A DNA stretch of 64,000 bases from Euglena gracilis (Eukaryota): contig CP154954.1 in assembly GCA_039621445.1 (NCBI GenBank), positions 34,445,737 to 34,509,736 on the forward strand, read 5' to 3'. How positions within the stretch are numbered: the stretch's first letter is position 1; every line of letters begins with the position of its first letter. The notes under the pieces are model-generated. The model made no database searches. It was not told the DNA's origin and saw only the letters and a program-made list of their open reading frames with translations. A program made the position numbers and the translations under genes. Below, one piece after another: positions 10,466-60,800 of this stretch.

Positions 10466-13400
10466 TGGGTGTGTGGGTGTGTGTGCGTGCGAGGTGACCA
10501 GGGCTGTCCGGGAAAGCCTGGGGGCCCCCCACTGCCTGTGGGCTGGGCGGGGGCAGCACGGGGGGCCCCTGCTCCGGCCGCCGTGGAGGACGTGGCGGTG
10601 GCGGCGGTGGGGGTGGGCCGGGGCTGCAGCCAGTCCGGCATCGGCAGGAGCGCTGCGGGCGGCGGAGGCGAGGGCACGCCGGGCCCAGGGCCGGGGAGGG
10701 GGGGGGTGGACCCCCCCCTGTCATGTGGACGGCCCCGCCCCCGCGAGCTGGTTTAGGCTGCCGGTGGCACACCAGTGGGACAAGGCTTGGGCCGCACGGT
10801 TGGGGGGGGGGGAAGCCCGGCCCTGGCGGACGCCCACTGGGGCGGGGCCGGCAGGGCGGACAGCAGCCTGGCCCGGAGCCAGGGAGAGAGGAAGGGGTTC
10901 CCCGGCACGGCAGTGGAAACCCCACCCCCCTTGGTGCTGTGCATGACAAATGCCTGGGGGGAGCAACCGAGGCGCCGCCACCACCGGACCGGGGCCGGGA
11001 CCAGAGGCCTCCTCGGGGGGAGGGTCGCCCTCCCTGGACGGTGCCCGCGCCGTGGCCGAGGAGAGGGACCGGGCCTGCGGCGGGGGCTTCGGCGCGGCGC
11101 GGGGTGGTGGCGCCGCTTCCTCTGCCGGCGCCGGCAGTTCCGCTTCCGGGCGCGTTGTGGGCGGGCGTCCCCACACAGGGACCCCGCAACGCGCTGCATG
11201 TCAATGGCAATGATGCCACGACAATGGCCAACAACCTTCCCCTTCCTGGCGGATGCCAGGAAGGAAGATGCCAGTCCCAACTGTTACAAATATTATTATC
11301 ACCATTTCTACTAATAAAAAAACATGATTACTATTTTAACTATTGCTACTATCATCACTATTTATTGTGGTCAGAAAGCTTTCACTGCCAAAACTGCTTC
11401 ATACAAAAAAAATCATCCTTGGGAGTCCCCTGCAAAATATGATTCTTTTTGGTTTGAACAATATTATGTTTGGGCAACGGCTAACTGCCTGGTTGCGGGA
11501 GGGGTCACTTGCGCAGGAGAAACCTCTCGAGCTGTCCACCCACCCACCCACCCAGGAAGAGTGCAGGTCATGCAAGGCTGGAGGGGCATGGGATGGGAAC
11601 GGCCGGGTGGGGACGTTGAGGCGGCGTTGGGCGGCAGGGCCAGGTTGGCGTAGAGCCAGGGGTGGGGGTCGGTGGGGGATGACGGCACGGCCTCGGGGGT
11701 CCCTTGGGGGTCATGCAAAGGGGAAAAGGAATACCGCCACATCAGACGTGCCAGGAATCCTGCGGCGGAGGGGCTTTCAGAAACTGCCGGTGTGGGTGTC
11801 AACCCATGCTGGGAAAGCGATGGGGGGGAAAAAACCTCCACATTCCCATCAACGGCGAGGTGCGATGATGCGGGAGTGAGGGTGGAGTCCGTCCAGAAAT
11901 GAGTGCAGCTAACATTCGAGGAAGACATGCAGAGTTGCCCTGGCACAGCATCACCAATGACAATTCCATGATGGAGGATGAGGCGGATCAAGCCCAGGGG
12001 CTCTGGTCTCCTGACTCGAAGGGGTAGCTGTGCCAGAGCTTCTCACCTTGGAGGTGGTTGCAGCAGGGCCTGAGCTGCCTGTGCAGGGAGGAATCAGTAA
12101 AAACACTGGTTTCTTGGGGAGGTGGCCATAAGAACAAATAGAAGATTATTCATCACCTGCGACAAACCCAGCTTCCCACCCACCCATTGATGTGCACTCA
12201 TCCACCGGCAGCGTTACAGTAGGAGGATGCACCGTAGAAGGAGTCTTTCGAGCCTCCTTGAACCACCTCGAACGACATTCGAGGAGGCTCTCGAGCCTCC
12301 TCAAATGTCGTCCAAGGCCATTCAAGGAGGCTCGAAAACCTCCTCAAATGTCGTTCGAGGAGGCTCAAAATCTTTCTTGAATGTCATTCGACAGGGCCAA
12401 GAAAACTTTCCGGTTGGTGGAAATTTTTGTTCAGGGGTTTTATTCCGGAATATTTCGGGTTATTCTGGAGTATTCCGGAATTTATTCCGGGTATTCCAAT
12501 GACTTTTTGCAGAGAAATGACTCAAGAAAATTTCCTGTGCACCTTCCCAGTCTTCAGGAATTCACCTAAATTTGTTGGTTGCCCAGCCTCACCAGTTGGT
12601 CGTCCCTGCACCGAAAAAAATGCAGCAATCAGATCAATACTGTTAATTTTGAACCGCAATTTAATCAACAAAATCGTGACCAAACAGGCTTCTTTTTACC
12701 AACCCCCAAGGGGTGCCTTGTGTTATGGGGTGCCTGCCCTATAGCAGGCACCCCCCCCAGACATTCATTTAGTGTGGTTCACAAAAGACGTGTGAACCAC
12801 AAATTTTTTTCTGGTGTCCACAGGTGAACCACAAATTTTTTTTTGGTGTCCACAGGTGAACCACAAAAATTTTTTTGGCGTCCATAGGTGAACCACAAAA
12901 ATTTTTGTGGTGTCCACAAAAAAATTTGTTGTCCACAAAAATTGATTGAGGATCGAAAAAAAAATTTACACCTAAAAGCGGATTGATCTTTAGACACCTC
13001 AACCACATTCTGAGCCTTGGCCCCGGTTCAATCCACGAGGTGTGGCAGTTGGAATTGGACAGATTGCTATCGAGAGTTCTCAAGCAGACATGCTCTATAG
13101 ACAACTTACCCAACAAGTATACCATCAAAAAGTTAAGTACTGGCGTCGATGAAGCGGAATTCCGCTTCATGGAAGCAGAAACACGCGACATTATCGTGGG
13201 GCTTTGGCATGGCTGTGGACATTAGGAGCGTTCTGGGGCATTGTGGGATGTCAGTTGAGTGCCTCAGTGCCTGAAAAAGTGCCTGAAAAATCGGCAATGC
13301 CATGTGCTTTGTTTTGAGGTAGGAGCCGGAAAGCCACTTCATTGCTGTGGTGTCAGATCTTCAACTTGACCATTCAATGAAAGACCACATTCAGTATAGT

Positions 13401-16400
13401 TTTTCATTCAGAAGGGTAAATGTCAGCCTCATTCTGGTTTTTGCAATTTGGCAATACGAGATAATTAAAAGGTATTATGTCAGCCTGAGGAAGCGGATAA
13501 CCGCTTCATATTTGCTCTGCTTTTTTTTGCAGGTTTTACGCCAATGTCATGTCGAAATGTCCTTCCAAGTGAAGCACGGGGAAGTGAACAGAAGGTGTGT
13601 ATCGTTTCGCCTGTTCTACCTTTCGTAACTCGTGCAATTGTCTCCACGTGGTTTGACGTATTTGCATTATGCACTTGGATAATGACATTCAATTTCTGTT
13701 CAGTTTGTCCAGTTTTTGTTATCTTCATAAATATTAACGTCCTTCGTTGTTATTGGGATTGGAATATCGTTTGGTGATCATTGTTGATCATTTCAATTCA
13801 TACCATTTTTTTACGGATTCTTTCAAAGCGGTTTTACGCTTCCTTTTTGGTGTGCAAACATTATGCATATTTTTTACATTACATTCTGTATAATTCATTG
13901 CGTTCAGTTTTCGTTGCACATCTCCTGCTTTTGAAGCGGAATGCAATATTTACCGCTTCCATTTTATAATTTTTCTGTTTCGTTCCTTCGGGGCCTACGG
14001 CAGCAGAAACAACGCTTGTTTTTGTCGGTTCCTCCTGTTCATGTATTTCTTGATTGGTTTTGTTGATTTTACCAGAATTCGAAAGTAAATTGGCCTTCTC
14101 AGGTCTGTTTTCGACTGTATAGGTCTCCTTTACTGTGAGCCAAACGTCCACCGGAATTGGCCAAAATCAGAACCTCTTCAAAAAAAATCGAAAAATATGA
14201 CCCTTTTTTGGAAGTGGTTTCCCGCTTCCTCTTCCGTTTTTAGAGCACCAGAATTGTAGGTCGACTTACGCCGCCTGAGTCAAACATGTTCAAAGAAGAT
14301 TGCTTCATTGCTGTTGATGAGAAAGAAAATGATGCAAATGTCAGCAGGCGTTGGAAATTTTTTGGTGTCCACATGTGAACCACAAACATTACTTTGGTGT
14401 CCACAGGTGAACCACAAAAAAATTTTGGTGTCCACAAGTGAACCACAAAAAATTTTTTGGTGTCCACAGGTGAACCACAAAAATTTTTGTGGTGTCCACA
14501 GTGAACCACAAAATGACAACCTTGGTGTACCACACTAAATGAATGTCTCCCCCCCCCGTCAGCTTTGCTAGTGCCTTGCCGACCAAGCCGATCCTCTATT
14601 GAAAATGGTCATTTTCGGCCCTCTGGCGTCTTCGGTGCCGGGGGCGTTATGCTAGAGCACTGAACCCCTCCTCCCAAATAACAGTTGCAGGGGGAAAGCC
14701 GAGAGAGATTTCTCCAAATGACTTTGCCCCCCCCTTCACAAAAAAAAGTGAAAAATGGCGCTTCTTTTTTGGAAAAGCAGGAGTGGGTAGGACCCACTGC
14801 TACCCATTTCTTAAAGACCCCGGGGGGGGGGGTCCAGCCTCCGGCTGGCAAAAAGGCTGCTGGAAGGAAATGAGCTGCTGGCTGGACCCCCCGGGGAAAA
14901 TGGGGGGGGTCTGGGACTTGTGGGGGCTGGGCTAGGCCAGGGTTCGATATAAGGACAGGTGGGGGGGGGTGGTCCGGACCCCCCCGCTGCGGGCCAGGAG
15001 GGGGGGGGGGGGGGGGGACACCCCCCCCACCTAAACAGGTGCGCGGTCAGGGTTGCCGAATTTTCGGCCCGGCGCGAAGCGCCGGGCCGAAAATTTTTGA
15101 CCCCCCAAAACGACCAAAAGTGCCATTTTGGGCACTTTTTGGGCAAAAATGTACCAAAAATGCAAAAAATTTTCGGCGCGAAGCGCCGGAGGAAAAAATT
15201 GACCCTTTTTGGGGGGGGGTCAATTTTTGCCCCCGAGGGTCGGTCCGGACCCCCCTGGCAGGTGGGGGGGGTGGTCCGGACCCCCCCCTGCGGGCCAGGA
15301 GGGGGGGGGGTGGGGGGGGGACACCCCCCCCACCTAAACCATGTACGCCCTCCTTATATCGAACCCTGGGCTAGGCTGGGTCGATGAAAAACAAAAAAAA
15401 TTCTGAAAATTCTTCGCCATTTTCGACATTTTGCTGGATGGAGATCAAGGCTGGATCGGGACTGAAGGAACAGCCTAATAATTAATGAAAAAATGCAGGG
15501 ATAGGTGAGCTGGGCAGCCCATTTGGCTGGCCAGCCGGCGGCCGGCTGGCCCGGTTCCGGCCGGGCTAGATACAACTTTATTTCACTCGACCCCCCCCCC
15601 CCCGGGGGCTGCCAGCCCGAATTTGGGCTGCTGGCTGGATTTGAGCTGCTGGCTGGCTGGACCCCCCCCCAGGGGATAGGGTCCCCTCGTAAGAAAACTG
15701 CTGGGCGCATCTCGCACTGGAGCGTTTTTTCTTTGTCGGCGTGCGCAAATGCGCACATGGACGAAGAAAATCAAATGAAGCGTGGGAGTGTATTGCATCA
15801 TGTGGCCCGCTGACCACAGGGATTTTCAAGCTAGCAGACACATCCATTTTCAGCCAATGAACTGTGCCTTATTTTTTGGACTATTGAAAATACTGGGCGT
15901 GAAGGGCACTTCCAAACTCGCCGAACGAAGCATTAAATTATATCACAACTAATAAAAAAATAAACACCATTTGACAACGAATAGCTTTTAGGAAAGTGGT
16001 CAGGCGGTCTGTCAATGGTTTTGATAATAACTTCGCAAGGGGCGGGGCCAGAAAGATCGGCCCATTAACTTTGCAGGGGGCAAAATTATTTGAGCGATTT
16101 GGTTCATTCACCCCAAAATCCGACCCCCCCTGGGTAAAAAAATGTCCTACCCCCCTGACTGCCAAGCACCCTCCCCCCAGGGGGACCCTGAAAAAAACCC
16201 ACAACCTTTTGGAAAACATAAGAACATCCTTCTCATAGCAAAACAGGACTAAATGATTGAGTGTGCCTGATGCCAGCTGCACTTTTTGCTGCAGAAGAGT
16301 GGGAGTTTTGCCTTCCCTCACTTATTTTTGGCCACTTTTTGCCATTTTTGTTGCCTTTGAAGTCAAAAGTAGCAAAACGTGGCCCAAAATGGCCTGAAAG

Positions 16401-17339
16401 TGGCCAAAATGGGTAAACATGGCCAAAGCTCACTTCATCTGCTGAAGGCAAGAGCGTTCTCTGGGCAGCGGCCACATGGCGAGGTGCCAGAGGAAAATAC
16501 GACGTGTGCGAGGAGAACTGACGGCGAAATGGGTGAACAGTGGTCGGAATGAGACCAGGAATGTTTTCATTCAAATCAGCAAGAGCGGTCAAAAATCGTC
16601 AAAAAAAAGCAGCAAAAAAAATGTGGCCAAAAGCAACAAAAAGTGCCACAAGTCTGCAAAAATGGCCCAATGCAGACAAAAGCATCGTGCCACAAGTGGA
16701 CAAAAGTGGCCAAAAGCACACAAAACCATCAAAAAATGGAAGAAAGTCGGCAAAAATGCCCAAGAAGCAGCAACGACCCAACAAAGGTGGTCAAAAGCAG
16801 TCCAAAGTTGCAAAAAAAAACTGGCCAAAAGTCGGAAGGTGGCCAAGAGCAGACAACAGCATAATAAAAAAAAACAGCAAGATGTCAGTAAAACTGGCCA
16901 AAAGCAGCAAAAAGCAACCAAAAGTCGGCAAAATGGCCAAAGGCAGTCAAAAAAAATGGCAAAAAATGGCAATTAAGTGACCACAATCAGTTGATAGCAG
17001 TAGAAGCAGCCTAAAAGTGGCAAAAGATGGCCAAAAGGACCAAAGGCTGCCTAAAAGGCCAAAAAGTGGGCAAAAGTGACCAAAAGCACCTGGAAGCTGC
17101 CAAAATGGCTAAAGTGGCCAGAAAAGGCTGAAACGCCCAAAAGTGGGCAAAATAGGTAAAAATAACAAAAAAAATGAGCAAACATGCTTAAAATTGTGCA
17201 TTGTATGGCTGTGATGTGCGCTCATTTTTTGTTGTGTTTCCCCCACCTGTGACCGACTACTTGCCAACCAGGGCCAACTGTGGCACCAAAATGGGAGTCG
17301 CCATAAATGCCTGGTTGTGTGTGTGTGTGTGTGTGTGTT

Positions 17340-17384
<45 letters not shown>

Positions 17385-20300
17385 ATGTGTGGGTGGGTGG
17401 GTGGGTGGGTGGGTGGGTGGGGGGGGTGGTGGGGGGTGGGGTAGATTGGGGAGTTAACGTAGGAAGAGGCTCAAGCTCGAACGTTCGAGCTCGAGCTTTA
17501 AGCCTTTTTGAGCCCCCCCCCCCTCAGGGGGCTTAAAAAACCTCCTCGAACCACCTCGAACGACATTCGAGGAGTCTTCCGAGTCTCCTCAAATGTGCTT
17601 GAGGAGGTTCGCAAGCTCCAGAGCCTCCTCCTACGTACACACATGGGGGTGCTTTGGGGCCCTCTGTGAAAAGTTGCCTACAAAACAACTGGCACAACAA
17701 AGGGGATTTGCACACACAGGACATATGTATTCAGGGTCCTCCGAACAGTTGCGTACAAAGGGGCATCGGCAACAAATGGGGTTTGAAATTAGTTGAATAT
17801 GTATGTATATATATATGTATATATATACATATATACATATATATACATACATATATATATACATATATATATATAATATATATATATATGGCAGCTGGAG
17901 TTTACTTCCCCCCCCGGGGGTCCAAATAAAGACTCCAGGGGGGGGGGGTCAGAAGTTTTTTTTGCGTTAATGATGGAGTAGGGTTAGGTGCGCGCATTCG
18001 GCCTAACCCTGACCCTAACTTGTACACCTAACACCCGTCTATAAGTTAGGCCTAACCTTAGGCCTAACTTGCTCACCTAACCCTGTTCCATCCTTAATGC
18101 AAAAAAAACTATTTTGACCCCCTCTTGTCTTTACGTGGACCCCCCCGGGGGGGCAAGTAAAATCTAGCTGCCATGTATATATATATATATGTTTTATATA
18201 TATACATACATACACACACAGATATATATATATATATATATATATTTGGAGTTTCATGGTCCAATGTTCGAGGTGGTTCCAGGTGGCTCCAGGAGACTCT
18301 TGAGCCTCCTCGAACGACCTCGAATGCAGGGGCAATAAAAAATCCTGAATAAACCGGAAATAAACTGGAATAGAAATTGTCAGAATATCCAGAATATTCC
18401 GGAATTTCCGTGAAAAAGCGCAGTGGAAAGTATGAAACATTTTCATGTAAAGGTGGCTTTTTGCGCTTTATTTGACTGCCAACGCTCCATTAAAGGTGGC
18501 CAAAAAAAGCTGCCAGAAGTGAATCTGACAGGAGATTCGGGTTCCACCATTCATAGGGTTTGGACAGCCCTGGGGTATTCCGGTTGGAAAAAAATCTCTC
18601 TGGCACTTCGCACCGATCTGAAAACGGGTTTTAACCTTTTTTCTTGCTAATCTTGTTCCAAAAATGCCAGGTTTCTGGGATCAGCTGGTGCGAAACTGGG
18701 AAAACCATTCCGCAAACTGGGGTTGCAAGAGTTTCCACTAGAAATTGCACTGCCCAGCTTTGGACTTGCTACAACCCAGCTTCTCAGGGTTTGCAACTCC
18801 TTAAGCAAAGACCTGACCCAAACACACACACACACACACGCACACACACTTGGCTCAGCTTCCAGTGTTTCGGACATGGGCGACCACCCATGATCCTCCT
18901 CACCAGGAAAACAAATTCTTGCATTGTCGTCGCCGCCTGGGTTGCTTGCAGCAGTGGGAATATCGATATACAAAATGTTTTCTCAGGCTGGGCAGATGTA
19001 TAATTTTTAAAAAAAATAATCAACGGGGACAGAAAGAATTTACAGGCCACCACCCACCCACCTACCCGCACGCATACACTCATGCATGCAATACCCACAC
19101 ACATACACTCATGCATATGATACCCACACACATGCCCACACACACACCAAACAAAACAAACACACACCACACAGTAACACTATCACATAACACACCCAGT
19201 GCGGCTTCCTGCACCTCGAAGATGGGCGACCATCGCCCTTCCTCAGCAGGCTCAACAGGGGAGTAAATCGCTGGGGAGGATGGAGCCAGGGGGTCCTCGT
19301 CGTCGTCATCCAGCACCATGATGGGGATGGGTCGCACAGGCTGTGTTCGAGATGCCGGTTGCTGTTGGGAAGAAGAGAGGGATGTAGAAAAACAAGAAAA
19401 GGCTGAGGTGTGCCGGTTGGGCACTGTTCAGCAGCCGCAGAGCACTCGTGCACACAGCTCAAGGCTCACAGGCACACAGGTCAACAAGACAGAGATTCAC
19501 ATGCGTCCGCATGAGTGGTTTAGTGCTTTGATACCTAAATACCATTTTTTTGGATTTGGTGGATGGCACGGACTTATACAGGACACGCCTGAGAATGCTG
19601 CCGAAGGAACGTATCGATGGAGGCACGGGATGCGCCGTGATCCCCAGAGTCTGAATCCGAGTCCGATGCTGCACACAGCCTTTGTCGCCCTGCAGGCACC
19701 CCTGGGGGTCTGGCTGCAGACTTTTTCCACCTCATTCCAGGTTTCCCATTGAGTGCGGTTGGGGTAAAAAATCTTCAAATTCCAAATTCTTCTCAACCCC
19801 AACCCAAACCCTCACCCTCACCCAACTTCGGTCCACATGCAGTTCATTTTGCTGGGAAAACCACGGAAATCAAGGGAATGGGGGGGGAGCTAACTATGCA
19901 TATCCTTTGTGCCGGGCAGGGGTTGTGCTAGAAACATCTTCCTCATCACATACTTATTATCATCCTTACCACATCACTTATCCGTGCTTGGGGGGAGATG
20001 GCTGTTGCCGATGCAATTGATTCTGACCCTCCCCCCAAAAAGGTGTTGTGGTCGAGATCATGATTGCCGCTTCGTCGTGGCGGGTGGAGTGTGTTCTCTC
20101 CTGCGCTGCCACCTGCCACACGGCGAAAGGGTATGTGGCACGGACGCTCCTGCGTCCAGTGTCCCCGGCCACCCATTCAGGTTGACCGTGGACCCCCAAA
20201 GGCATACAGCTGCCACGGACGGGATGTGAACGGGTGAGGCGGGGGCACCGGCTGCTCGGCGGCCGCCACCGTGCTTTCGATGTTGGCGAGGGTGGTGAGG

Positions 20301-23300
20301 GAAAGCACCTGCACCCAGCGCGGCTCCACGCACCGCGGCCGAGGGCCTCGCCGAGAGGGGGGGGGCTCAAGGGGCCAACCTCCTTCCCGTCCCATCACAG
20401 TTGCCGCCTAGGGCCCAAAATGGAACTTTGGCATTCCTCAAAAGCTCGCTTGCTTGCCCATCATTGATGTGGATGAGCAAATCCATAAGAACCCCCCCCT
20501 GCCATAATTGCCCCCGGGGTGCCCCAGACCACGCGTGCCAAAACTGGACTGGGAGGAGGGCCCCGAGCATGAGTGGTAAAGGTCCGCGTACTTCGCCCAC
20601 GGCCGCAGACAGGAGCAGGCCAGCGCTGCTGGCAGGCACGGGCGATGGCACCCACCACGCCCCCCTCCCCACTGCTGTCCGCCCCTGTCCACCCCCTACC
20701 CCTGGAGCCGGGCCTGGCCTCCAGGCCGGGGGCGAAGAGGGAGGCGTAGACGGGGTGGGTGTGCACAACGAGGGTGTCCAGCAGGATCCTGATGGGGGGA
20801 GGCAGTCCCATTGAGCCCCCGGGTTGACCCCACCGCCTGGTTTGGTGTTCCCACACAAAATGTTGCCCCGACGTTCTGGATGCACAAGTGCGAGGGGAAT
20901 TTAGGGTTACCGTAAGGAGTAAGGGAATTGATAGGGGAGGCCCCACCCAAGCGAAGTTTTGCGAAAACTTTTCGTAAAACTGCATGTTCTTGATGGGATT
21001 CTGCCGTTGGGGACACCTCGGTCCAACCTTAGACGGCTGGGAACATCCGAGAGATTCCGAAAAAATGCAATTCTGAGACCTTCATACCTTGTGGCATAAT
21101 CAAAACTCTCACATGGATTATTGTCCATTTTCACAGAAATATTCAGGGTAAAGATCCTGGGTCACAAAATCCTAGAAAATGGTCTGGTGCTTCTGTTGTC
21201 ACAGTTATTCTTCCATATTGGACAAAATGCTCTGTAAAGCTTCAAATTAACATTGGAACTTGGCGCTGTACAGGCCAAATGAACACAATTAGCAGGCTTC
21301 CATTTTGGGGTTTCTCCGCATCGGCTCGAATGATAATGTTTTTTTGTTTTAATGTTGATGTTTGTTGTACCTGACAAATTAAAAACAGCCACCCACCTCA
21401 AATAGGCTTTGCCGCAGTGCAAATGGCAGGACACATGGTGGACATGCAGGAGCACCCGGGGGCACACCAGGCCGCCAGGCGCGCCAGGGGGGTGGGGGCC
21501 CCGCGGACGCGCTCCTCCACGAGGGCCACCACCTCCCCGGCCCACTGCGGGGCCAGCGCCCCGCCGGCCTTGGCGACCCGGATGATGGCGGCAGACCGTC
21601 GCGGGGGTTGGGAAGGGAGGCGGGGGCCCAGGCTGGAGGTGACCCCCCCCGCGTGCCCGGGAGTGCCGGGACAGGCAGGCACCCCTCTGCACCTCTCTCT
21701 CCCCCTGGGGTGGGGTCGGGGCCTGCCTGGTTGTGGCCCAGAAAAGTGCCAGAAATGGACTCTTCTGGAATTGCCTTGACTGTGTGCCCAGGCACTTCTG
21801 GCCATAAGCCCAACCCCCCCCCCCAGGTGCAGATCTGGGTGCTTTGGAATGCCTACCCCCACCTCAAAATTCAGCCTGTTGGGGATCCCACCTGCCTGCC
21901 GGGATCAGGCCGTATTTTACCAACCCCGGGGGGAGGGGGGGTCCAGCGTGCCTATGAGTGCCTGCCTGGGCAGGCACTAACCCCCCCCGGGGGGGGGGGT
22001 CGAGTTTCGGCCTGTGCCCAGGCACATTCCTTTGAAAATAGGCCATTTTTGGCTCCCCGGCGACTTCGGCGGCGGGTCTGTGCTAGGGCACTTTTGACCG
22101 TGTGTCCGACCCCCCCCCCCGGGGGGTCGGATTTGGAGTGCCTTGGAGTGCCTGCCCAGGCAGGCACCCCCCCCCCCGGGGTGGGTCGGCACCCGACTAA
22201 AATACAGCCTGGCTGGGATGGCAGGAGGTCCCAACCATCTTAATCACGGCACATGTAAACGAGATGTGTTGATTAACAAAAAAAATCTAACAGGCGCACA
22301 CAGACGATGAGCACACAGACGGCGAGCACAGGTGCTCATCGTCTGTGCGCACTGGTTTCGTTTGGAGGGAACAGAAAAGCAAATTCCCAAACGCCCAAGA
22401 TGAGGTTTCCTGAGCCTCCCCATGCGTGGGGGTAAGCATGTTTTGGGCCGGGCCGGGTTGGACATGACAGGATTTGCTGCGAACCCAGGGGCCAAATCTG
22501 GGAACAAAAATTTGAAAGGACATGCAAGCTGAACCTGCTGAAAGGCCAAAGATCAGCCAAATGTGGTAAATCATCAGGTCAAACAAAGTTGGGGATTCAC
22601 ATTCAAAGAAGAGATAAGCCTTGGGTAGAAAATCATTCACATACCGCCCAAACCCCAGACAAGAGAAATAATGGACAAAGGGGATAATATTTTGATAGCA
22701 CATTGAGCAGATGGATGCTTGTGTGCGTTTGCGTTAAACATTTGTGAGTGTTTGCACGGGAGCACGAAACCGAATCGCATCCAATTGACACCAGGAGACC
22801 AACTGCCTGGCCAGTCTCACATGGATCCGGCCGCCGCAACGCGAAGAGGTCCTGCCGGAAGGCGTCCAGAGAACCCAGCGGCGCGGCCATCACCCCGGGA
22901 AGAGGGTGTGGGGCAACATGGGGCGGGGGAAGAGCTCCGACCCCCCTGGCGGCGCAGAGCAGACCGTCAACGTTGGTTGGGGCAGTCCGGGCAACGGAAT
23001 CGGGGCCACCGCCAAAAAGAGGGATATCTGAGGATGCAGTGGTGCCAGGACCATACCCGGGGCAGGCCAGCCATTTGGGTGGGTGGGCGCTTTCCGTTCC
23101 GAAGGCAAACCAAACCGTCGTCCCGTTTCGACCCATGGCACGCTGTCCCGGGAGCCTCGATTCTCATTTTTGTTGCCTCCAAATGTGCCACAGGGGTAAA
23201 ACTTTTGGGATGTAACAAAAACGGTTGGGTAGTACAGGTTCCTGGTCAAAGAAACAGAGATATGTTTTTGATAGCAAAACGTTATCCACATTGGTTTGTT

Positions 23301-24107
23301 TGGCTGCCTCCCATTCCCGAGTGGGGTTGACCCCCAGCCCCCCCCCCCCCCCTGCATTGTATGCCCCCCTGTAAAAGTGGTGTCCAGGGCGTATGGGCGC
23401 AGCGGAAAGACCAGACGGAGAATGGAGCATCCCCCTGGCACTGGTCCCTTGGCTGGTATTGCGCTGGATCTAAAACGGTTAACGGTGGTGCCCTCCACGC
23501 ACAAGGAGGATTCACCACAGAAGAATTTCAGCTGAAAAATAATACATGTTGAAAATAGAAAAAGGTGGTGGGCAGCGCTCGCCGTCCCCCACCCCAGATA
23601 GATAGCCAGGTTTCCTGCTCAGCCTGGCTTTTTATCTGGAGAATAAATCCATAAATCAAAAATTTGAGAAGACAGAATAAATACAAGAGTGTAAAGGGGC
23701 TGTATGCGTGACCGCCCTCCCAGCACCTCTGAGCTTGAACTACAACTGCATTGGCAAATTCACATCGAAACAATTTGCTATTCTGCTGAGGGAACTCAAC
23801 CATAAAACCAGACATATGAGTTGCATGTACCATGTATGCAATTTTCTGGGAGGGTTGAGAAGCCATCTCTCTCCCTGCCCTTCTTGAGAGACCACAATGC
23901 AACCCTCCTTGGCAAAACGGCTGTGCTGTGAAATCGAGGTGGCGCCGTGTCCGTTGCCTCGTGTCTGTTGGCGAGGGGTGGCGGAGTGCGAGTGCAATTG
24001 GACACCGGATGGCACCTCGCTGCGGGGCCGTCCACGGCGTGGAGAGTGTGGAGGGGCGAATGTGCTGTGAACTGGACAGAGGGTTCGGGTTCGGGCGTCG
24101 CAGGCAT
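340..24107 (-). CDS. Gene A: multi-exon gene encoding an N-terminal CID-like domain, a low-complexity linker and a C-terminal AEP (primase-polymerase)-like domain; 3' end probably runs off the window
   Basis: ATG at 24107 directly follows a pyrimidine tract plus AG (cttctttcttcag-t-ATG, MPATPEPEPSVQ). GC-rich exons splice in frame within the CID part (20250-21600) and the AEP part (340-4680). Linker exons lie near 19200-19330, 18850-18960, 11590-11710, 10100-11180, 8425-9270, 6100-6310 and 5580-5770. Continuity across 12100-18800 is inferred, not proven. Confidence 0.6.
496..916 (-). other. Nonconventional (euglenid-type) intron
   Basis: The 5' end accCAGGGGTGGCG pairs with the 3' end CGCCGCCCCTGccccc. 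There is no GT-AG. Removal gives EG|RPIVP in frame. Confidence 0.8.
978..1838 (-). other. Nonconventional intron
   Basis: The 5' end gccCGGCCCGCCAT pairs with the 3' end ATGGCGGACTGccacg. Removal gives DITAVRA|GSLRMP. Confidence 0.8.
1995..2100 (-). other. Nonconventional intron
   Basis: 5' ggcCAGGC and 3' GCCTGcctcg. Removal gives LKTV|DVLNA. Confidence 0.7.
2179..2339 (-). other. Nonconventional intron
   Basis: The 5' end ggcCGGCGAGGGG pairs (with G-U) with the 3' end CCTCTCGTCGgcgcc. Removal gives KEKDCP|KTSFH. Confidence 0.8.
4026..4110 (-). other. Nonconventional intron with CAC/GTG instead of CAG/CTG
   Basis: The 5' end gccCACCGCAGCG pairs with the 3' end CGCAGCGGTGgcgcc. Removal gives LVERHTLH-Y-PYTEDIDL. 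Confidence 0.7.
4170..4581 (-). other. Nonconventional intron
   Basis: The 5' end ggcCAGGCCTGCCCA pairs with the 3' end TGAGCAGCCCTGgggcc. Removal gives CEAV|AACHR. Confidence 0.8.
7575..11045. repeat. Intragenic tandem duplication (~1.7 kb unit) of exons and introns
   Basis: 8422-9271 is near-identical to 10099-11045 apart from the length of a (GT)n tract. 7575-7960 is a more diverged homologue of 9290-9680. Confidence 0.9.
12759..14548. mobile_element. Non-autonomous DNA transposon (1.79 kb) with 20-bp TIRs and subterminal repeat arrays
   Basis: Perfect TIR AGACATTCATTTAGTGTGGT at both ends, flanked by C8 on the left and C9 on the right (compatible with an 8-bp TSD). Arrays of GGTGTCCACAGGTGAACCACAAAA lie at 12790-12920 and 14363-14512. 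The interior is AT-rich with no intact transposase ORF. Confidence 0.85.
14938..15368. mobile_element. hAT-like MITE (family 1)
   Basis: TIR CAGGGTTCGATATAAGG / CCTTATATCGAACCCTG with a perfect 8-bp TSD GGCTAGGC. It is inserted into a copy of MITE family 2. Confidence 0.92.
16325..17180. repeat. Degenerate ~10-bp periodic minisatellite (GGCCAAAAGT-like)
   Basis: Recurrent GGCCAAAA/GGCAAAA/GCAGCAAAA units, which explain the K-rich ORFs. Confidence 0.7.
17890..18172. mobile_element. Foldback MITE embedded in a (TA)n microsatellite
   Basis: Long imperfect TIRs beginning GGCAGCT, internal GGGTTAGG/CCTAACCC motifs, and (TA)n on both sides. Confidence 0.8.
20250..22900 (-). CDS. Exons encoding a CID/RPR (CTD-interacting domain)-like helical domain
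   Basis: Spliced sequence: LDAFRQDLFALRR..SAAIIRVAKAGGALAPQWAGEVVALVEERVRGAPTPLARLAAW|ILLDTLVVHTHPVYASLFAPGLE|ALACSCLRPWAKYADLYHS|WCVEPRWVQVLSLTTLANIES. It follows the Pcf11/Nrd1/SCAF8 pattern (KLxxxYLLDSIxK..Y...F...L ... L..W...F....L..I). The junctions at introns 20789-21467 (GT-AG), 20628-20719 and 20335-20568 are in frame. Confidence 0.65.
20335..20568 (-). other. Nonconventional intron
   Basis: 5' gctCGGGGCCCTC and 3' GAGGCCCTCGgccgc. Removal gives YHS-W-CVEPRW. Confidence 0.65.
20628..20719 (-). other. Nonconventional intron
   Basis: 5' ggcCAGGCCCGG and 3' CCGTGCCTGccagc. Removal gives PGLE|ALACS. Confidence 0.75.
21906..22211. mobile_element. hAT-like MITE (family 3)
   Basis: TIR CAGGCCGTATTTTA / TAAAATACAGCCTG; TSD GCCGGGAT versus GCTGGGAT (7/8 match). 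Confidence 0.8.
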
Positions 24108-24687
24108 ACTGAAGAAAGAAGTGCAGGCGCTTGGGCGGGTGGATGACAGACAGTTCAGGCACCAAGCGGACTTCCGTCAAATGCATTTGTGCATCTCAAA
24201 ACATTTTTCATTAATTGTGGAATGCGCCATCAATGCAGCAGAGACAGGGACATGAGTAAAGGGCTTGTTTTTGGGCGGCGGCCCACTGTGCGGATCCAGA
24301 GTTCAGCCATCAAACCAATCATTGGGCCAGATTGGAACCAACCCAAAAATCCACCGACCCCGTCCCACTCTCTGACACTCTCTGGCGGCTCTGGGACCCA
24401 GGGGGTCCCAGAGCAGTGGATGCGAGTGGTTCAGGGGGCAAGCCCACTGGCCGTTCGACGCTATGAGTGAAACGTGACAGGTGGGCGCGGGCGGCGAAGG
24501 GGACCGAATAGTACAAGTGAGACACACACGGAAGGAGCAACAGTGCCGGCGTCCCGCCTCGAAAGCCACGATGGTGGACCCCACCCAAGAGCAGGGGGGA
24601 GGGCCTGCCTGTTTGGGTGATAAAACATTTGCGTCCAAAGTGTTTGGGGGTTCCATCCAGATCGGAGGCGGCCCACCGGGCAGGCCG

Positions 24688-40703
<16,016 letters not shown>

Positions 40704-44700: not shown

Positions 44701-46751
44701 GAAGCTCAATGATAATGTGGGTGGGGGGCATCTCCTCGAAGACCACTTGAAAACCTGAATGGCAGCTTTAATCGCAGAGACAAGTTGTTTCATTGCCATG
44801 GATGAAACATTGAGGAAAAGGAGAAGGGGCATTGCAGGGCTCGATACAAGGGCAGGTGGGGAGTCCAGACCCCCCACCCGTGCCAACCCCAAGGGGGACA
44901 CTCCCACCTAAACACAGCGCGGCCGAAGAGGGCCATTTGGCCTGGTGGGAAGCTGAGGGCCAAAAATTTTTGCCTCCCAAAATCGACCCAAAATGCCATT
45001 TTGGGCACTTTTGGGGGGCAAAAACTTGACAAATTTTGCCCAACGATTTCAGCACAAACTCATGGAAAGAAATTTTCGACCTGTTTGGGGGAGGTCCTGG
45101 GGCTGGAACCTCCTTGGGAGGTATGGGGGGTCAAGGAGGGAGGGGAGCTCCACCTCGAACTGTGACACCCTCTTGACATCGAACCCTGGGCAGCGTGCTT
45201 TTCAGCAGAGAAATCCACTGTAAACACATGCCAATACAGACACACCAGAGAACAGCGCGTCGTTGTTATGATGGATGGAGACTGTGGTGCGGTCTGCAAG
45301 GGTCCAGCGAAATGCCACAGGCGAAGGAGGGCCCTGTCAGCTCTGCTCCCTCATACAAAAATGTTCCAGGAAAAGATCAGGGTCCAGTTGCTTTGTGGCC
45401 TGTCCACTCTCCAATGCCCCCACCCCCAATGCCACACCAGAAGTGACGCCAACCAAGTACCAACCTTGGCTGACCGCAGGTGCACACAAGCTCATACAAC
45501 ATACAAAAATAGATACATGCCATTCTGCATCAGACAAGAAGCTTCCGCACAGCCTTTGCGGTGGATGCACAGAGGAGGCTCCAGCAGGCCCTGCGGAAGC
45601 TCCATTACCCACCCTGTTGTGCGGAGGCTGCAGGTCCCCAGGCTCAATGGAGGTTTTGCGGAGCCTCAGTATTCATCACAGGATGATAATAATAAAAATA
45701 TGTATTTCACTCTACTTGTGAAAAATCACCCCCTGTGGGTTTTGCCAGATGACCCAAACAGTCAATCAACTTGTGGGGATCCTCATAACTTGCGGATTCC
45801 CCCCATATTTTTAGTCGAATTGGGCGACCCTTTGGGCTTGCTGAGTACGCTGCACAGGCGTAACAGACGGCCATGGGGGAAGGGCTCAATGAAACCCGAA
45901 CCAAATACCGTTCAATACCCAAAAATACTCCCCGTTGGGAAATCACAAAAAAAACGCATAGGTTCTGAACAAAATTTGAGGCCTGGAGGAAGTTCATGAG
46001 ACTGCACGGAGGCTCCAAATGTCCATGGAGGCTCCACGGGCGAAATGTCCAGCTACCAAATTTGCTGGGGCCAACAGAGGCTGCCCTTGGGTGGCGCTCC
46101 TTCGGGCACCGTCCCCACTGCGGGCTCCCAGTCGGTAAGAAACATCTCGAACCGCTCGTACACGTCGTCCGGGAGGTCGGCCCCAGCACAGATCTCCCCA
46201 ACCCCCAAGCGGTCCGAGGGAGAGTGCTGATCACCCCAAAAATGGCCGGGTGCCCATCCGCCAAATGTTTTTTGGCACGCCAAAGAACGGGGAAAGTGCG
46301 ATTGACACGGGGTGTGTGAAACGGACACGCTGTGTCGTGCGCACTAAACGCCCATAAAACATTTTGGGGTCGGGAAAAATGCGGTTGACACAGGTGTGTC
46401 ATGGACAAGGCGTGTCAAGGACAAGGGGGGGGGGAGGCAGCTGGGCAGGATTTGACATAAACCCTTCCAAAATCCGGGGGGGGGGGCAGGGTTTAACATA
46501 AAGTGGCGGCATTTTGTGGGGGCGTGTCCCCGGAACCAGCATCTCCAGCGACAAGCCCCCAAAAAACCTGACAGGCGGGGGACGGGCGGGGCTGGGTGGA
46601 GCGGTACCACAGCTCCCGGTCCTGGCGCAGGTTGATGATGACGTCGTAGTCCATGAAGACGTAGTAGAGGTAGCCCCCCTGCGGCATCCGCACCGACCGC
46701 CGCATGGCCTCGTCCAACAGCCGGTTCCGGCCCTGCACCAAATGGGAAAGG

Positions 46752-48866: not shown

Positions 48867-51800
48867 CGGGCATGACTAACAGGAACAACAGCATCACACA
48901 GAGGCAGGTGCACACAAGAGAAGAAAACACAACAACCAGAGGGCCCCCGGCACATTGGTACAGTACTGGCAGGGCCGGCGCGCAGTCCCCGGCTGGTCCG
49001 CAGGTCTGGTTCCAGTGACCCGCCACGTCAAACACGCCGACCGTGTCCGCCTGGCCCCACTTCAGGGCGAAGTACGGCCGCCCCCCTTGCTGCCGCGCCG
49101 CGTGCTGCCGCGCAGCTGAGGAGAGGAAGGGGGTGCCCGGGGACAAAGAAAGCAAACTGGTGGTGGTGGTTGGAGTCCGCCCTGGACGCCGCCTCTTTCG
49201 GGCAGTCAACCCGCCTTGAAATGTTTCCAGCAGGGTTTGAGGGAGGAGTGCCACTGTTCAGCCGATGCCATGGCCCTCCCATTCCATTATCGGTGGTCAG
49301 CTCCTGATCAAAGAAAAGCACGGCCAGAGCTCATTTATTTCTCCCTCCTTGTTTGGCCTGGAAAGGGCTGAGGCACCCTTGCCGTCGACACTGCACGGCC
49401 GCTTCGCCCACCCCTCATGCGCGGAAACTCCTTCTTTGGTCACCAATGGCTTCGTTCCGCTTCAGATGTGTCGTGCAAACCTGTGCTCTTCGAAAGCCAA
49501 GCAAGCTATACGAAAGCCCATCAGCCTGGCATTTGTGGGGCCATTGGGGGGTGTGGGCAGGGGAACAGATTCTTGAGCAACCTTCCAATGACGCCGCCTC
49601 ACGCAGCCCCGCTGGGGGGGGGGGGACACACCGGGGGTGGCCAACGACCAGCTGGGGCCCTCCTCGTCGGGGAGGAGCCGGACGGCGGGGACCGTCCGCA
49701 GCCACAGCCCAGCGCGGCTGAGGCGCACCAAGTAGTCCGCCCCAGGCCGCGGGCGACCTTCTGGGGGGGCCGGGGCGGGGGGCGCTGTGCTCATGGCCCG
49801 GGGAAGGTTGGGGGGGGGGGGCAGGGGGCAAACACGGTCTGGCCAGGGCCCTCCTGGGATGCCGGGTAGAAGTTGGGGTCGAACCGGCCAACCCGGGCCA
49901 CCGCGGGCTGCAGCAGGGCGAAGCAGCGCGGCGGCGAGCAGTCCTTTGGGAACGGGCGGCGTTCCCGTGTCTCACTGGGCCGAGGCGTGCGTGTCAGGGA
50001 ACAAAGAGTCGGAGGGCACAAAGACAAACAAAAAAGCAACAAAGACTGCACTGTAACACATTTGGGGGGCGAACCTGGCCGTGCAGGCAGCTTTTGTGCT
50101 CATCAGGCTTTGCTCAAAGACCCCAGGGGTCCACTAGGTAGTCATTTCACTGGCCACAAGGAAAAAGCCACTAGCTAGACCCCCCCCTCCTCCCTGGGGG
50201 GTCTCAGGGTCCCCCCAACTGGGAAAAAAACTCCGACGCACTGTGCGGCGAGGTGGAAATGGAGGTGTCAAAATGCTTTTTGTTTGGCTGATTCTGTTCC
50301 AGAGAATCAAAAAAAAATCAAAATGGGCGATTGGGGCACGTCTTGGGGGTGAAAATTTTTTTCAGCGCTCTGCGATCACTGGGGAAAAAACTCCATTATC
50401 TTGCCCTACTAGCAGCCCCCTCCCCTGGCAAACTTGGACCACTAATTTCCACTCGCAAATTTCGACTAACGGCAATGGCGGGTGCTCATCCCAGTATTCG
50501 CTCATTCACTTTGGAGGAAAGGGAAAAATGCACCCCCTCAAAAAATTTCCCCTGTGGAAAAAATCTGGGTGTGGAGGCTTGCTGTAAGTTAGCCCTGGAG
50601 GACCAAATGATGTGTAGGCAGGGTTCGATATAAGGACAGGTGGGGGGGGGTCCGGACACCCCCCCCCCCTGCGGGCCAGGAGGGGGGGGGTGGGGGGGGA
50701 CACCCCCCCCACCTAAACAGTGGCGCGGTCTGGGTGACCGATTTTCGGCCCGGCGCAAAGCGCCGGGCCAAAAATTTGACATCCAGCGAAATCAAAGCGC
50801 AAGCAGCACATAATGTTTTTTCAGCAGGTCAATGGCAGAAAGTACCAAAAACTCCGGCGCGAAGCGCCGGAGGAAAAAAATTGACCTTTTTGGGGGGGTC
50901 CCGGGTACCCCCCCCCAGGGTCGGTCCGGACCCCGCAGGTGGGGGGGTCAGACCCCCCCCCTCCGGGCCAGGAGGGGGGGGGGGGTGGGGGGGACACCCC
51001 CCCACCTAAACCATGTACGCCCTCCTTATATCGAACCCTGTGTGTAGGTGGATTACACCAACTGTACAAAAATTGAAAAGAAGAAATGTGTTGAAAGAGG
51101 AATGGGGAAAAGACTGCTCGGTCCATAACCCGATTGTGTGCAGCGTTCCGCAGACATACAGTTGCCTGACAGAATTCCTGATTGAGTTCAGACCACAGGC
51201 AACTGCTACATGAACCAAAATTCCAAAGCGGTTTTGCGATGGCACCCGTGCGTCAGGGGGAAAGCCAATGACTGTGGCGAGGAGAAAGCGTGAATTCATT
51301 CAGCCTGCTTCGTGTGGATGTGACGTTGGGGAGGGCATGCTGGGAGACACCGGTCGTTTTTGTTTGAACGCATTCCACCAACCAACTGCCACACACAAAT
51401 GGAGCCCAATGCGCGGGCGGCCTTAAGGTGTGTCGGCCAGAATTTGGTGCGTTCTCCCGTGTGCTGCCACTTTGGCCCGCCGACCAGGCAATGGCGTGGC
51501 CGGGGGCCAGGAGGACTGCCGGGCTGCGGCCCTGGGCCACCAGCTGCTGTTGCTCCCACACCGCGGCGAGGAACTGGGCGAACCCCCCTGTTGCGAGGCA
51601 TCGTTGGACAGGGCGTCGCTTGGCAACGCGGGGGTCCAGCTCAAAGGCTGGACAATTTGGGCTGGCTGGAAAAAGGCTGCTGGCTGATCCCCCCCACAGG
51701 GGCCCCCCAGCTGGAACTGAGTCCCAGTTAGGGTCGAACCGGGTGGCAAAAAAAAAAGCGAAACTTCAAAAACTTCAAAAAAATCTGCCAGTTATGCAAA

Positions 51801-56852: not shown

Positions 56853-57010
56853 AAGGGGTGGCGGACGCCGGTTCTGTCCAAAACCCGGCGTTCCGGACGC
56901 CGGTTCCGTCCTTCGGACGGAACCGGCGCCCTTCGGACGGTTCCGTCCGAAGGACGGAACCGGCGTCCGGAACGCCGGGTTTTGGACAGAACCGGCGTCC
57001 GCCACCCCTT
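56853..57010. repeat. Perfect long palindrome (~73-bp arms, ~12-nt loop)
   Basis: The arm AAGGGGTGGCGGACGCCGGTTCTGTCC...GGACGGAACCG is repeated as its exact reverse complement. Confidence 0.9.
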
Positions 57011-57012
57011 GT

Positions 57013-57845
57013 TTAAAGCGGCGTTTTAGAGACGCCAGGCTCAGGACAGAACCGGCGTCCCCACCCTTCGGTCAAAGGACACTCCCAGGACCAATCTCCG
57101 ACCACTTATCTGCAATGTCACGCCACTTTGCATTTCATCAAATTCCGGCGATCGCGAGGGTATTTCTGGCTGAGTCAATCGTCCAGGTACAAAGTCACCC
57201 CTCAATCGAAAGCTCTTTTCATCAGACGACTGGCGATCACCACCAAATTCAGCCACGCCGCCTGGAGCTCTTATTTTCCGTCACTGGGAAATCCTAATTT
57301 CACAACTCTGGTGCCCCCTAGGACCCGTCAGGTCGTTGATTCGAAGAGGAAAAACGTTTCTGTAGGGTTTATTCAGCATCTTAAACCAAAAATCACTGAA
57401 AATTGCCACAAATTTCGACTCAGATTCTGGCCGATCCGACGATCGCGAGCGTATCTCGGGCTGCGTGCAAGGTTAGAGTACCAAGTTACCCCTCGATCGA
57501 AAGCTCTTTTCAACAGACGACCAGCGGTGCTCATCAGATCTTTCCACGCTGCACGGTACTCTATTTCCAAATCTGGGCCAATTTTCACCAAATTTGGATA
57601 TCCACCCCAGTGGTCCCCAAATGGCAAAATTCATTGTCCTAGATGGTTGAAACAGTCATACCAGCACCTTAGGGCCACTTTTGGGCACCTTTGGTGACAT
57701 TTTTAGGAATGAAAACCGGACGCCGGGTTTTAGGACAGAACCGGCGTTCCTAACGCCGGGTTTTAGGACAGAACCGGCGTCCGTAAAACCCGTGGGGGGG
57801 GACGCCGGTTCTGTCCTGAACCCGGCGTCTCAAACGCCGGTTTAA
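57013..57845. mobile_element. TIR element bounded by TTAA
   Basis: ~45-bp imperfect TIR (..GGCGTTT..GAGACGCC.GG.TCAGGACAGAACCGGCGTCCCC) with TTAA at both ends, and an internal ~110-bp direct repeat (57145-57260 and 57435-57550). Confidence 0.7.
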
Positions 57846-60800
57846 GGAGCTCTGAGCTGATGGCACCATCAATCAGGGAAAGAGCTCAGCACTGCACAAA
57901 ACTTGGTGAATTGTTGGTTCAGCACATGGTGTGGTCATAATGGCCCACTGCCTACCAGGGCCATATTTTCTTTACCTCACAGAAAACAAGCATTCACTTT
58001 GTTCATTGGTGAGCAGACTCGTCGCTAGCAAAACTAGAAATTTCTTGTGATGCGAGCACCCTGGAACAATATTTTGTGTCTGGGACACGGGGGGGGACGC
58101 GGGGGGGGGACGCGGGGGGGGGACGCGGGCGAGACGCCATTTTTGGGACAGTGAAATTAGGAATTTGCCGTGAGAAAATTTTAGCCAAATTAGGATTCTA
58201 CCACAACAAATTAGGACAAACCCACCCCAAAGCAGGAATCACCCACTGCAAGTTAGGAATCACCCACACCAAATTAGGAATCACCAACCTCAAATTTGCC
58301 TGAAATTAGGAATCAGCCTCCTAAATTGGCTGTCTCGAGAACAAAATTATGGTTCCAAAGTGGGACGCGAGGGGGGGGGACGCGGGGGGGGGGGGACACG
58401 GGGGGACGCGGGGGAGACACCCCCTCTTGTGTGTGTTTCTCTGTGCTGTTTCTCTGTGCTCTGCAACCAAAAAAATTACTCACTGCTGCAAGAGAGTTCT
58501 GCTCCACGTTGACTTTTTATTTTGTGCTTCGCCATGGCCACAACAGAAAAAAATTTTTGCCACCTCCGTGTCTAAAAAAAAAAAAAAAAATTGTAATCCT
58601 TGTCAACAACTGTTAAAACTTTGACAAAGACGAACAAATACAACCAGCCATTTTGTCCACGCCTGATTGTGCCCATCAACTTTGAGACGTTGCATTGCAT
58701 CTGATGCTTTGGAGGAGTTGCCTTGCTGCACAATGACAAGACGAGAATGGAAACCATTTGCTGTGGCACCTTGCAGCGAACAATCAAAAATAACAGAATT
58801 GCATTAATGAAGAATAAGGGAATCGTTTTAATCCATGGGTGGCCAGTGTTCACCAACATTCGACAATCCATATGTGAATATTTGATCTAATCCGCAAAAT
58901 TAATCATTAATAGAATCACTGTGACCTCAATGAAAATTCCATTTGGACACCCGAACTTTTTCCGACTTTCACCGCACCAAAATCATCCAAAACAACTGTT
59001 TCCATAATAAAAATGCCACGACCGGCACTGAAAACACTGTTTCACTGAAAGCACTCTGGCCTTTCAGGCGGAAATTTAAGACCCTCCAGGTCTAATGCCA
59101 AAAAGGATTTTCACATCTGGTGGCCATGTTAAACTTGAATTTGTTGTTCTGATCCTTGCCAACGTCATCCACACCAAATCGGCTGAATTGCCGTCGTGAG
59201 TCTCAAAAATCATCCAACTCTGAATGGTCCCCAATTGAACATCTTGGATGGATATTGATGATAATAATCGCAACAACAAGTTGCAGCTTGGCCTTGCTGC
59301 TTGGTGATTGGGAGACATTCTAATTGGGAAACACCAGCCATCAGGGGGGGGGGCATGCTATTTTCAATTTGCTGATGACATTCATGGAGAAATGATCTTG
59401 ATGACATTTCATGGATGGGTCGTAAACACAACCATCCATGCGAACTGCACTTGAGTTATGGTATCACAATTGCGTCTTGTTTTGAGCCCCCCATTTTCCA
59501 TTGACGGTGCTCCCCCAAGAGAGATGCAATTTGACCCAATGGTGGTCCCCCAAGAGAGGTTCAAAGAAACCCAAAGACCCAAAGAAAAGACCCAAAGAAA
59601 AACATCTCAATTTAATATTTTCAGTTTTTGAGGTAGAGATAGGGTTTTGTGACTTAGACGTCTTGCTCCATTGGAGGCTTGGGGGGGGAGGTCCGGACCC
59701 CCCCCCCCGAAATTTGGGAAAAGGTGGTTCTGGCAACCCAACCAGACTGCCAAACCATGAGAGACTCACCAAAAACCCTAGAAGGGAGTCAAAAAAACAT
59801 CCCTATGAATTTTGTTTGAACACCTCTTCTTTTCCAGAAGTAAAAATAGAACAAAAAAGGTTTTGAACTTCTAGTGGGATGTCAAATTAGTAACTCTTCA
59901 CTCTCTTGGTGCAACTGTCCTCTGCAAGGCAAATCAAGGATGGGATTGCCACAGCAACGCCCATCCGGGGCGAGTTCCTATTATAATTGCAAGTATTGGT
60001 AATGCAAGGGACACTTCATGTTGCAACGCAATGTCAAGCACTTGCTTGAGGGGCAGCAGGACTTCATTTTTTGAGTTTGTCGTGAACCTCAACTGGTTTT
60101 TCAAAAACAACCCAGAAGGACAAGGCAACATAGATGGTCTTCCTTAGGGACTTTGCATTTATGCTTTGAATTTGTATAGACAAGCAGAATGGGGGGTCCA
60201 AACCAGCCAGTTTGAGGCGAGAGAAATGGAACATCAATTTTTTTGGTGAGAAAACTGGGGGGACCTGTGCCTTCCCAAAACATCGTCAAATCATCCTGCC
60301 AACGCAAGCAGACCTTCTATTCTTTGCAAATGGCCAGGCTTCTTCCATTTAAAAAAAATGGGTCTGTAACATTGCAACATTGTGTTACAATGTGTTTTTG
60401 CATTGTAAAACATCAGCAAACACTTTCTAAACATTTCGGGCTCAATCGGGTACTTTGGTGCGTTGTTTGTAGATTTCAATGTTGCAGGCAAACATCCACA
60501 CCCCTACCCGCACCATACACCTCAACACCGTTTGGTGAAACCAACATGGCGTATGTGCTCTTCAACAAATCGAATTTGCAGGTGCTTGGGAAAGGCTGGG
60601 TGGGGAATCAGATGTCCACTTTGGAAACGAAATGAACAATAATAACAAAAGGACCGCAAAAATCCACAAGAGCCACAAGGTTCGCATCCATCCAGAACTG
60701 AAAGGAACAAAGAATGACGCTCGAATGTTTGTTCACCGTTTGGAAGTTCACCAGGGCACAGACTCCGTCCCCCACCCCATTTCATGGCCAACCAAACAAT

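Follow-up and report, generated by a model that had tools for sequence, protein, structure and literature searches.

The window, i.e., the whole 64,000-nt stretch of Euglena gracilis DNA that was analyzed here, carries four repeat elements that begin with CAGG, end with CCTG and are bordered by 8-bp target site duplications (TSDs), together with several further repeats (Table 1). No recognizable gene was found in the window, as none of 604 stop-to-stop open reading frames (ORFs; 258 of at least 110 amino acids and 346 of the 511 of 55 to 109 amino acids, with an entropy of at least 3.75) yielded a Pfam match above the cut-off. A lead to the ZIP family reached 21.1 bits against a cut-off of 35.1; the matches it returned were weak (E value of 8e-9 or worse), mostly unnamed and covered little of the query, and the match was taken as low-complexity sequence. 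A sub-threshold Pfam match to Foamy_virus_ENV (14.2 versus a cut-off of 27) was also discarded. Three weak candidates emerged from a GC3 screen of the window, and Rfam and tRNA scans of the same DNA found nothing. Raw RNA reads from three runs, each sampled at approximately 5 to 6%, were mapped to positions 11401-31400, a segment that contains three of the four elements. This segment was nearly silent in RNA, with one unique expressed patch near 23928-24800. The sole RNA-supported joint among those listed, 15000<->23331, was read as a poly-G/poly-C artefact, and a candidate nonconventional donor at 23928, a read-start place, had to be rejected, since it showed 34 complementary matches versus 35 by chance and none was suitably placed. 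The original prediction had also described nonconventional introns within this window; no intron was identified there, with 604 ORFs devoid of Pfam matches above the cut-off and RNA nearly silent on 11401-31400.

Table 1. Repeat elements in the window, with their termini (TIR, terminal inverted repeat) and flanking repeats
Feature	Positions	Strand	Length	Ends	Flanking repeat
1.8-kb repeat	12758..14549	.	1.8 kb	starts CAGAC; left end CAGACATTCATTTAG; right end ...GAATGTCT then C	TSD uninformative because of poly-C flanks on either side
Older family-3 copy, host of the element at 14938..15368	14800..15707	.		decayed	TSD unrecognizable
MITE family 1, copy 1	14938..15368	.	431 bp	CAGGGTTCGATATAAGGA / reverse complement of CAGGGTTCGATATAAGGA	GGCTAGGC at 14930-14937 and 15369-15376 (8/8)
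MITE	21906..22211	.	306 bp	CAGGCCGTATTTTA / CAGGCTGTATTTTA	GCCGGGAT (21898-21905) versus GCTGGGAT (22212-22219), 7/8
MITE family 3	30752..31252	.	501 bp	CAGGGGATTTCTTAAG / CAGGGGCTTTCTTAAG; opens with CAGGGGATTTC	GTCGATCC at 30744-30751 and 31253-31260 (8/8)
Probable fifth CAGG...CCTG element	38942..39432	.	491 bp	TIR 18/20	ACAGGGAC / ATGGGGAC, 6/8
MITE family 1, copy 2	50619..51040	.	422 bp	TIR as in copy 1	TGTGTAGG at 50611-50618 and 51041-51048 (8/8)
CGG...CCG-ended element	57019..57839	.	821 bp	CGG...CCG	GTTTAAAG / GTTTAAGG, 7/8
Non-CAG element	58855..60729	.	1875 bp	AAC...GTT; perfect 9-nt TIR AACATTCGA	perfect 8-bp TSD TGTTCACC

The CAGG start and the CCTG end were present in all four elements, which have TIRs of 14 to 18 nt and sizes of 306 to 501 bp. 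These ends and the 8-bp TSDs, as described in the original prediction, were borne out base for base, the duplication being perfect in three elements and matching at seven of eight positions in the element at 21906-22211. Both family-1 copies (14938-15368 and 50619-51040) have in common a perfect 18-nt TIR beginning with CAGGGTTCG, and the two copies are 80.5% identical to each other across 442 aligned columns. The elements had been called young, a description that is only in part fitting, as it agrees better with the intact duplications of the family-1 pair than with the divergence between its members. Pfam returned no match on ORFs crossing the four elements, and no coding capacity was seen in them.

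We used a strict scan that demanded CAG...CTG ends, a 14-nt TIR with at most 3 mismatches, a flush 8-bp repeat with at most 1 mismatch and an element size of 80 to 3000 bp. The scan returned exactly four matches in the window, namely the elements at 14938-15368, 50619-51040, 30752-31252 and 21906-22211, while 100 dinucleotide-preserving shuffles gave 3 matches in total (0.03 per shuffle). When the flush repeat was set to 6, 7, 9 or 10 bp in the same scan, each setting gave 0 matches, and shifting the 8-bp repeat by 1 to 6 nt from the element ends gave 1, 0, 1, 0, 0 and 0 matches, respectively. CAG..CTG pairs with a 16-nt TIR numbered 41, and the best agreements between their flanking 8-mers were 8, 8, 8, 7 and 6, with a background mode of 2. 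An unrestricted scan for TIRs and TSDs was set aside in favor of the strict one, because palindromic and microsatellite repeats swamped its result and the offset controls were equally high. We regard the four elements as almost certainly being transposons that generate 8-bp TSDs.

The element at 14938-15368 sits within the older family-3 copy, of which positions 7-143 of the family align to 14806-14937 and positions 138-482 to 15366-15688. Deleting this element together with one GGCTAGGC copy renders the sequence collinear with the family-3 paralog, and the paralog can be read as a putative paralogous empty site for the insertion. The DNA word depth (run X1), which does not equal copy number, was approximately 45-60 in unique bins versus 1e5-8e5 in the bins containing elements, and the element families are therefore highly repeated. 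A metagenome scan with the 17-nt family-1 end gave 23 single chance matches, none of which extends past 18-28 nt, and a full-text literature search for the TIR string retrieved no paper. As for the 1.8-kb repeat at 12758-14549, the corresponding end of another copy, located in a DNA contig, reads ...GAATGTCTG, and the RNA signal on this repeat is one-stranded (run X24).

The four elements are non-autonomous cut-and-paste DNA transposons (MITEs) that belong to very high-copy families and are hAT-like, a label taken from TSD length and end motif only. An 8-bp TSD, short TIRs and CAG-type ends are features of Ac/Ds, hobo and Hermes, and the hAT terminal motif is of the YARNG type. The terminal 5 nt are CAGGG in three of the four elements and CAGGC in the element at 21906-22211. 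The hAT target pattern is nTnnnnAn; none of the four element TSDs has both a T at position 2 and an A at position 7, and this combination is present in two of the three perfect 8-nt repeats of published nonconventional introns that are described below. These families are presumably mobilized by a hAT-type transposase. Among the 604 window ORFs, Pfam detected no transposase domain.

The CAG...CTG ends of the elements are of interest in view of the signals that govern nonconventional splicing in euglenids. According to a recent report on knock-in experiments in E. gracilis, nonconventional splicing requires both CAG and CTG, the donor spacer ahead of CAG is 3 nt long and loses its function when changed by +1 or -1, the acceptor spacer past CTG is 5 nt long and tolerates +1, and a purine is preferred as the first base of the downstream exon (PMC12501133). 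It is also reported there that synthetic 50-nt introns, designed on these rules and given 12 paired bases, are spliced, and that CGG-CCG introns are spliceable (PMC12501133), the latter having the same end triplets as the element at 57019-57839. The intron offsets of 3 and 5 nt given in the original prediction agree with these published experiments, and its arithmetic, by which 3+5=8 restores the pre-insertion mRNA, is sound and rests on the measured cut offsets (PMC12501133).

The geometry can be spelled out for an element inserted between two copies of a TSD, T1-T8. Cuts after T5 of the left copy and after T5 of the right copy would leave a message that keeps T1-T8; with CAG...CTG ends, an 8-bp TSD and cut offsets of 3 and 5 nt, what is lost would therefore be the element and precisely one length of the TSD. 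The removal would be scarless at any target because the two offsets sum to 8, the split itself being unconstrained by seamlessness. If the TSD is cut 5|3, the 5' cut lies 3 nt ahead of CAG and the 3' cut 5 nt past CTG in all four elements. The sixth TSD base, T6, which would become the first base of the downstream exon, is a purine in seven of the eight element-orientation cases, and a pyrimidine occurs at this position only in the element at 30752-31252 read on the + strand. In the predicted minimum-energy RNA folds of the four elements on both strands, computed with 12-nt flanks, the terminal C1-G, A2-U and G3-C were paired in all eight cases.

This agreement might be a coincidence, in which case the elements would be ordinary intergenic hAT-like MITEs and the CAG/CTG stem and the 3/5 offsets would reflect only the needs of the splicing machinery, with no evolutionary link between the two. 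In many organisms, hAT elements commonly have CAG ends and 8-bp TSDs, as a coincidence would have it, and among the RNA joints listed, no splice joint was found at the three elements in 11401-31400, a nearly silent region for which approximately 5 to 6% of each run was sampled. Against a coincidence, the match extends to the offset sum as well as to the end triplet. Further evidence bearing on this alternative came from published intron junctions.

For the junctions, we compared the last 5 exon nt plus the first 3 intron nt with the last 5 intron nt plus the first 3 exon nt in the supplement tables of Milanowski et al. 2014 (PMC3935182) and 2016 (PMC4770533), by a hand count in which errors of a few matches are possible. 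Three nonconventional introns from three genera showed junction repeats of 8/8 in this count, each flush to the inverted termini and split 5|3 as the authors drew them: Euglena agilis ACOI 323 gapC intron 4 (repeat GTCCCAAC around CATTACCTTG...CAAGGTATG), Lepocinclis spirogyroides tubB intron 12 (repeat TTCCTAAC around CAGGCC...GGCCTG) and Monomorphina pyrum tubB intron 13 (repeat ATCCCTCC around the 10/10 inverted repeat CATACCTCTG). Since such introns are slidable, the 5|3 split in the tables is the authors' boundary convention. Two of these three perfect cases have CAT...ATG ends, not CAG...CTG. The gapC intron 4 is described as missing in five other strains, and its 'eight nucleotide direct repeats' were remarked on by the authors themselves (PMC4770533); the youth of tubB introns 12 and 13 is suggested by the intact repeat only, each position being shared with another genus in the table.

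The 26 species-by-position entries of the 2014 tables gave a mean of 3.8/8, which falls to 3.5/8 once the two perfect cases are set aside. In a mismatched-pair control, the left 8-mer of entry i was compared with the right 8-mer of entry i+7; this gave a mean of 2.9/8 and a maximum of 6, values that are raised because the consensus is common to both junctions. The check on 8-nt junction repeats that accompanied the original prediction thus had a divided outcome: three introns were perfect, but the 54 older E. agilis rows from 2016 stayed at the control baseline (mean of 2.9/8 versus 2.9/8; best, 6/8). The junction signal comes from a small number of introns whose repeats are intact, and old introns have lost it; this fits what the model predicts, and the old introns give no independent support to it. 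The 2025 report places junction direct repeats in 84.4% of E. agilis introns (PMC12501133).

These counts bear on a coincidence in both directions. That the older introns show no 8-mer signal above baseline in the hand count is what a coincidence would predict; three perfect flush 8-nt introns, however, compare with approximately 0.01 expected in approximately 36 entries at the per-base match rate of approximately 0.36 taken from the control. On this evidence, we consider a mere coincidence unlikely. The three introns also touch on double-strand-break repair (Milanowski et al. 2016), under which the introns would be filler DNA at staggered breaks, their repeats would be footprints of the repair and the MITEs would be unrelated. 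Although this is the authors' own proposal for gapC intron 4, made with reference to intron gains in Daphnia (PMC4770533), the repeat has a constant length of 8 in three introns of three genera and is always flush to the inverted repeats, and the window contains free multi-copy elements of the same geometry, one of which shows a nested insertion. Break repair is accordingly an improbable source of the repeats.

A third alternative reverses the direction: excised intron circles would have been copied back into DNA and spread, and the 'MITEs' would be escaped introns whose movement was not driven by a transposase. The release of nonconventional introns as full-length circular RNAs, stated in a 2024 review (PMC11282704), would supply the circles. 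An excised circle, however, would include 8 additional bases from the junction, and no such bases are shared by the free copies. Moreover, there is an exact 8-bp duplication at four unrelated targets, and the elements end precisely at their inverted repeats, a combination that is characteristic of integration by a DDE transposase. We hold this reversed order of events to be highly improbable.

We return to the reading in which the transposons came first and the introns were derived from them. It is likely that elements of this type seed nonconventional introns. Taken as a whole, the evidence gives us moderate confidence that the four window elements, as hAT-like MITEs, represent the same kind of element that was the source of euglenid nonconventional introns via scarless excision. 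In the proposed mechanism, an element residing within an exon would be transcribed in either orientation, and its inverted ends would pair into a stem that opens with CAG:CTG. The nonconventional splicing system would then make its cuts 3 nt ahead of CAG and 5 nt past CTG, and the removed 3+5 nt would consist of the last bases of one TSD copy and the first bases of the other, so that the pre-insertion message would be restored at any target. We infer that the window families would be spliced when located in exons, and it is plausible that the window copies and their families act as intron sources. The original prediction went further and called these MITEs ready-made seamless introns; their geometry and the three published introns fit this description, but among the RNA joints listed there was no splice joint at the three copies in 11401-31400, and no gene was recognized in the window. 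More tentatively, and as a nearly even call, nonconventional splicing may be an exact RNA-level undoing of hAT-like integration, with the 3- and 5-nt rulers tuned to sum to the 8-bp TSD, in which case any such MITE in any exon or orientation would be scarless from its first generation and the window families would be living members of the source.

The origin and the removal of nonconventional introns have been standing questions since the 1990s, and these introns are reported to make up approximately 70% of the introns of E. agilis (PMC12501133). If the elements are indeed their source, the question of origin would become a genome-wide overlap test, the 3/5 asymmetry of the splicing code would be explained by the demand that its sum equal the TSD, and the abundant 'slidable' introns would be those with decaying TSDs. 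It would also mean that a second, non-spliceosomal route leads from transposon to intron at the scale of whole genomes, and a portable, ready-made scarless intron cassette for Euglena engineering would be a further prediction. If splicing does undo integration at the RNA level, the nonconventional introns of Euglena genomes, which number hundreds of thousands and are mostly 'slidable', would thereby be explained.

A MITE-like origin of these introns is not a new idea. As the original prediction correctly stated, it had already been proposed, having been in print since 2014 (PMC3935182), when, according to the authors, euglenids were still without a known transposable element, and it was repeated in 2018, in 2024 (PMC11282704) and in 2025 (PMC12501133). 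The 2024 review terms CAG/CTG a 'TIR' and the junction repeats 'TSD-like' (PMC11282704). In the openly available full text that was searched, we found neither a statement that 3+5 equals the length of the TSD nor an assignment to hAT, and no free source families were identified there. Euglenid nonconventional introns have CAG at +4..+6, CTG at -8..-6, a stem joining the ends and direct repeats where intron and exon meet, and the window elements, if cut 5|3, would be alike in all of this; they differ in being known here as free repeats.

Comparison with hAT MITEs and Ds shows that the 8-bp TSD, the short TIRs and the CAG-type ends are shared, while no transposase was detected in the window ORFs and no autonomous partner was seen. 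Ds is spliced imperfectly by the spliceosome via cryptic sites and not scarlessly. That maize Ds acts as an intron was reportedly described by Giroux and colleagues in 1994. The non-canonical introns of Amoebophrya are also similar, as they look like MITEs, have inverted and short direct repeats and occur in a protist whose splicing code is unusual (PMC7789003); they differ in that their TSD-like repeats measure 3-5 nt (PMC11282704) and that they belong to another lineage and have other end motifs. A further parallel is provided by the introners found in Micromonas and in Aureococcus (Huff et al. 2016, described in PMC11282704), in which DNA transposons with TIRs and TSDs become introns and the TSD helps to restore the message. 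Those introners are spliceosomal, have 3-nt TSDs and carry one splice site within the element, the other being co-opted from the TSD (PMC11282704). The window elements, in contrast, would rely on non-spliceosomal machinery, with one cut inside each of the two TSD copies.

Within the 20 kb compared with RNA (11401-31400), the sole unique expressed patch lay at 23928-24800, and its RNA reads began sharply at position 23928. Several RNA variants in this patch were concordant with the DNA run and therefore represent allelic or strain differences; neither a Pfam domain nor, on searching, a splice partner was found for the patch. Over 12735-14735, which holds the 1.8-kb repeat, the first mates of RNA run X24 fell nearly all on the plus strand (7-9 vs 0.1-0.5). 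Apparently, one strand of this repeat family is transcribed at some place in the genome. Hundreds of RNA reads were drawn to the long G or C runs listed below, with loose ends of poly-G or poly-C. Reads of this kind also gave rise to an 'opposite strands' RNA joint between 15000 and 23331, which we took to be a sequencing artefact that inflates the depth of the bins concerned.

Repeat fragments, palindromes and homopolymer runs in the window
Feature	Position	Detail
Fragment, families 1 and 3	691-857	right end CCCTG retained
Fragment, families 1 and 3	3216-3277	right end CCCTG retained
Fragment, families 1 and 3	44893-45024	
Near-perfect palindrome	56849-57014	77-nt arms, 99% complementary, 12-nt loop
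Long inverted repeats	33502-34738	arms of ~80 nt; enclose ATGC/TATG microsatellite arrays
Long G or C run	15000-15018	
Long G or C run	15301-15320	
Long G or C run	23331-23352	

Clustered palindromic repeats of the GCGCAAATGCGC type were observed at 25597-28916. DNA contigs from other copies lack 25611-28266, so that a 2.6-kb insertion appears to sit there within another repeat family. The near-perfect palindrome adjoins the CGG...CCG element, with which it has 52 nt in common at 90% identity, and the long inverted repeats contain an inverted CAG...CTG pair at 33586-34096 that is perfect over 16 nt and lacks an 8-bp duplication.

The three fragments look like old broken copies of the two MITE families. 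The inverted repeat of family 1 (14938-14955) resembles one end of a known intron. This likeness may be due to chance, because the 3′ end of that intron did not match the repeat and its orthologues, as tabulated by Milanowski et al. 2016 (PMC4770533, Table S2), differ among themselves; the similarity is to the 5′ end of the nonconventional hsp90 intron 5 of E. agilis strain WA, given in the same table as CAGGGTTCG with TAAGG a few bases later.
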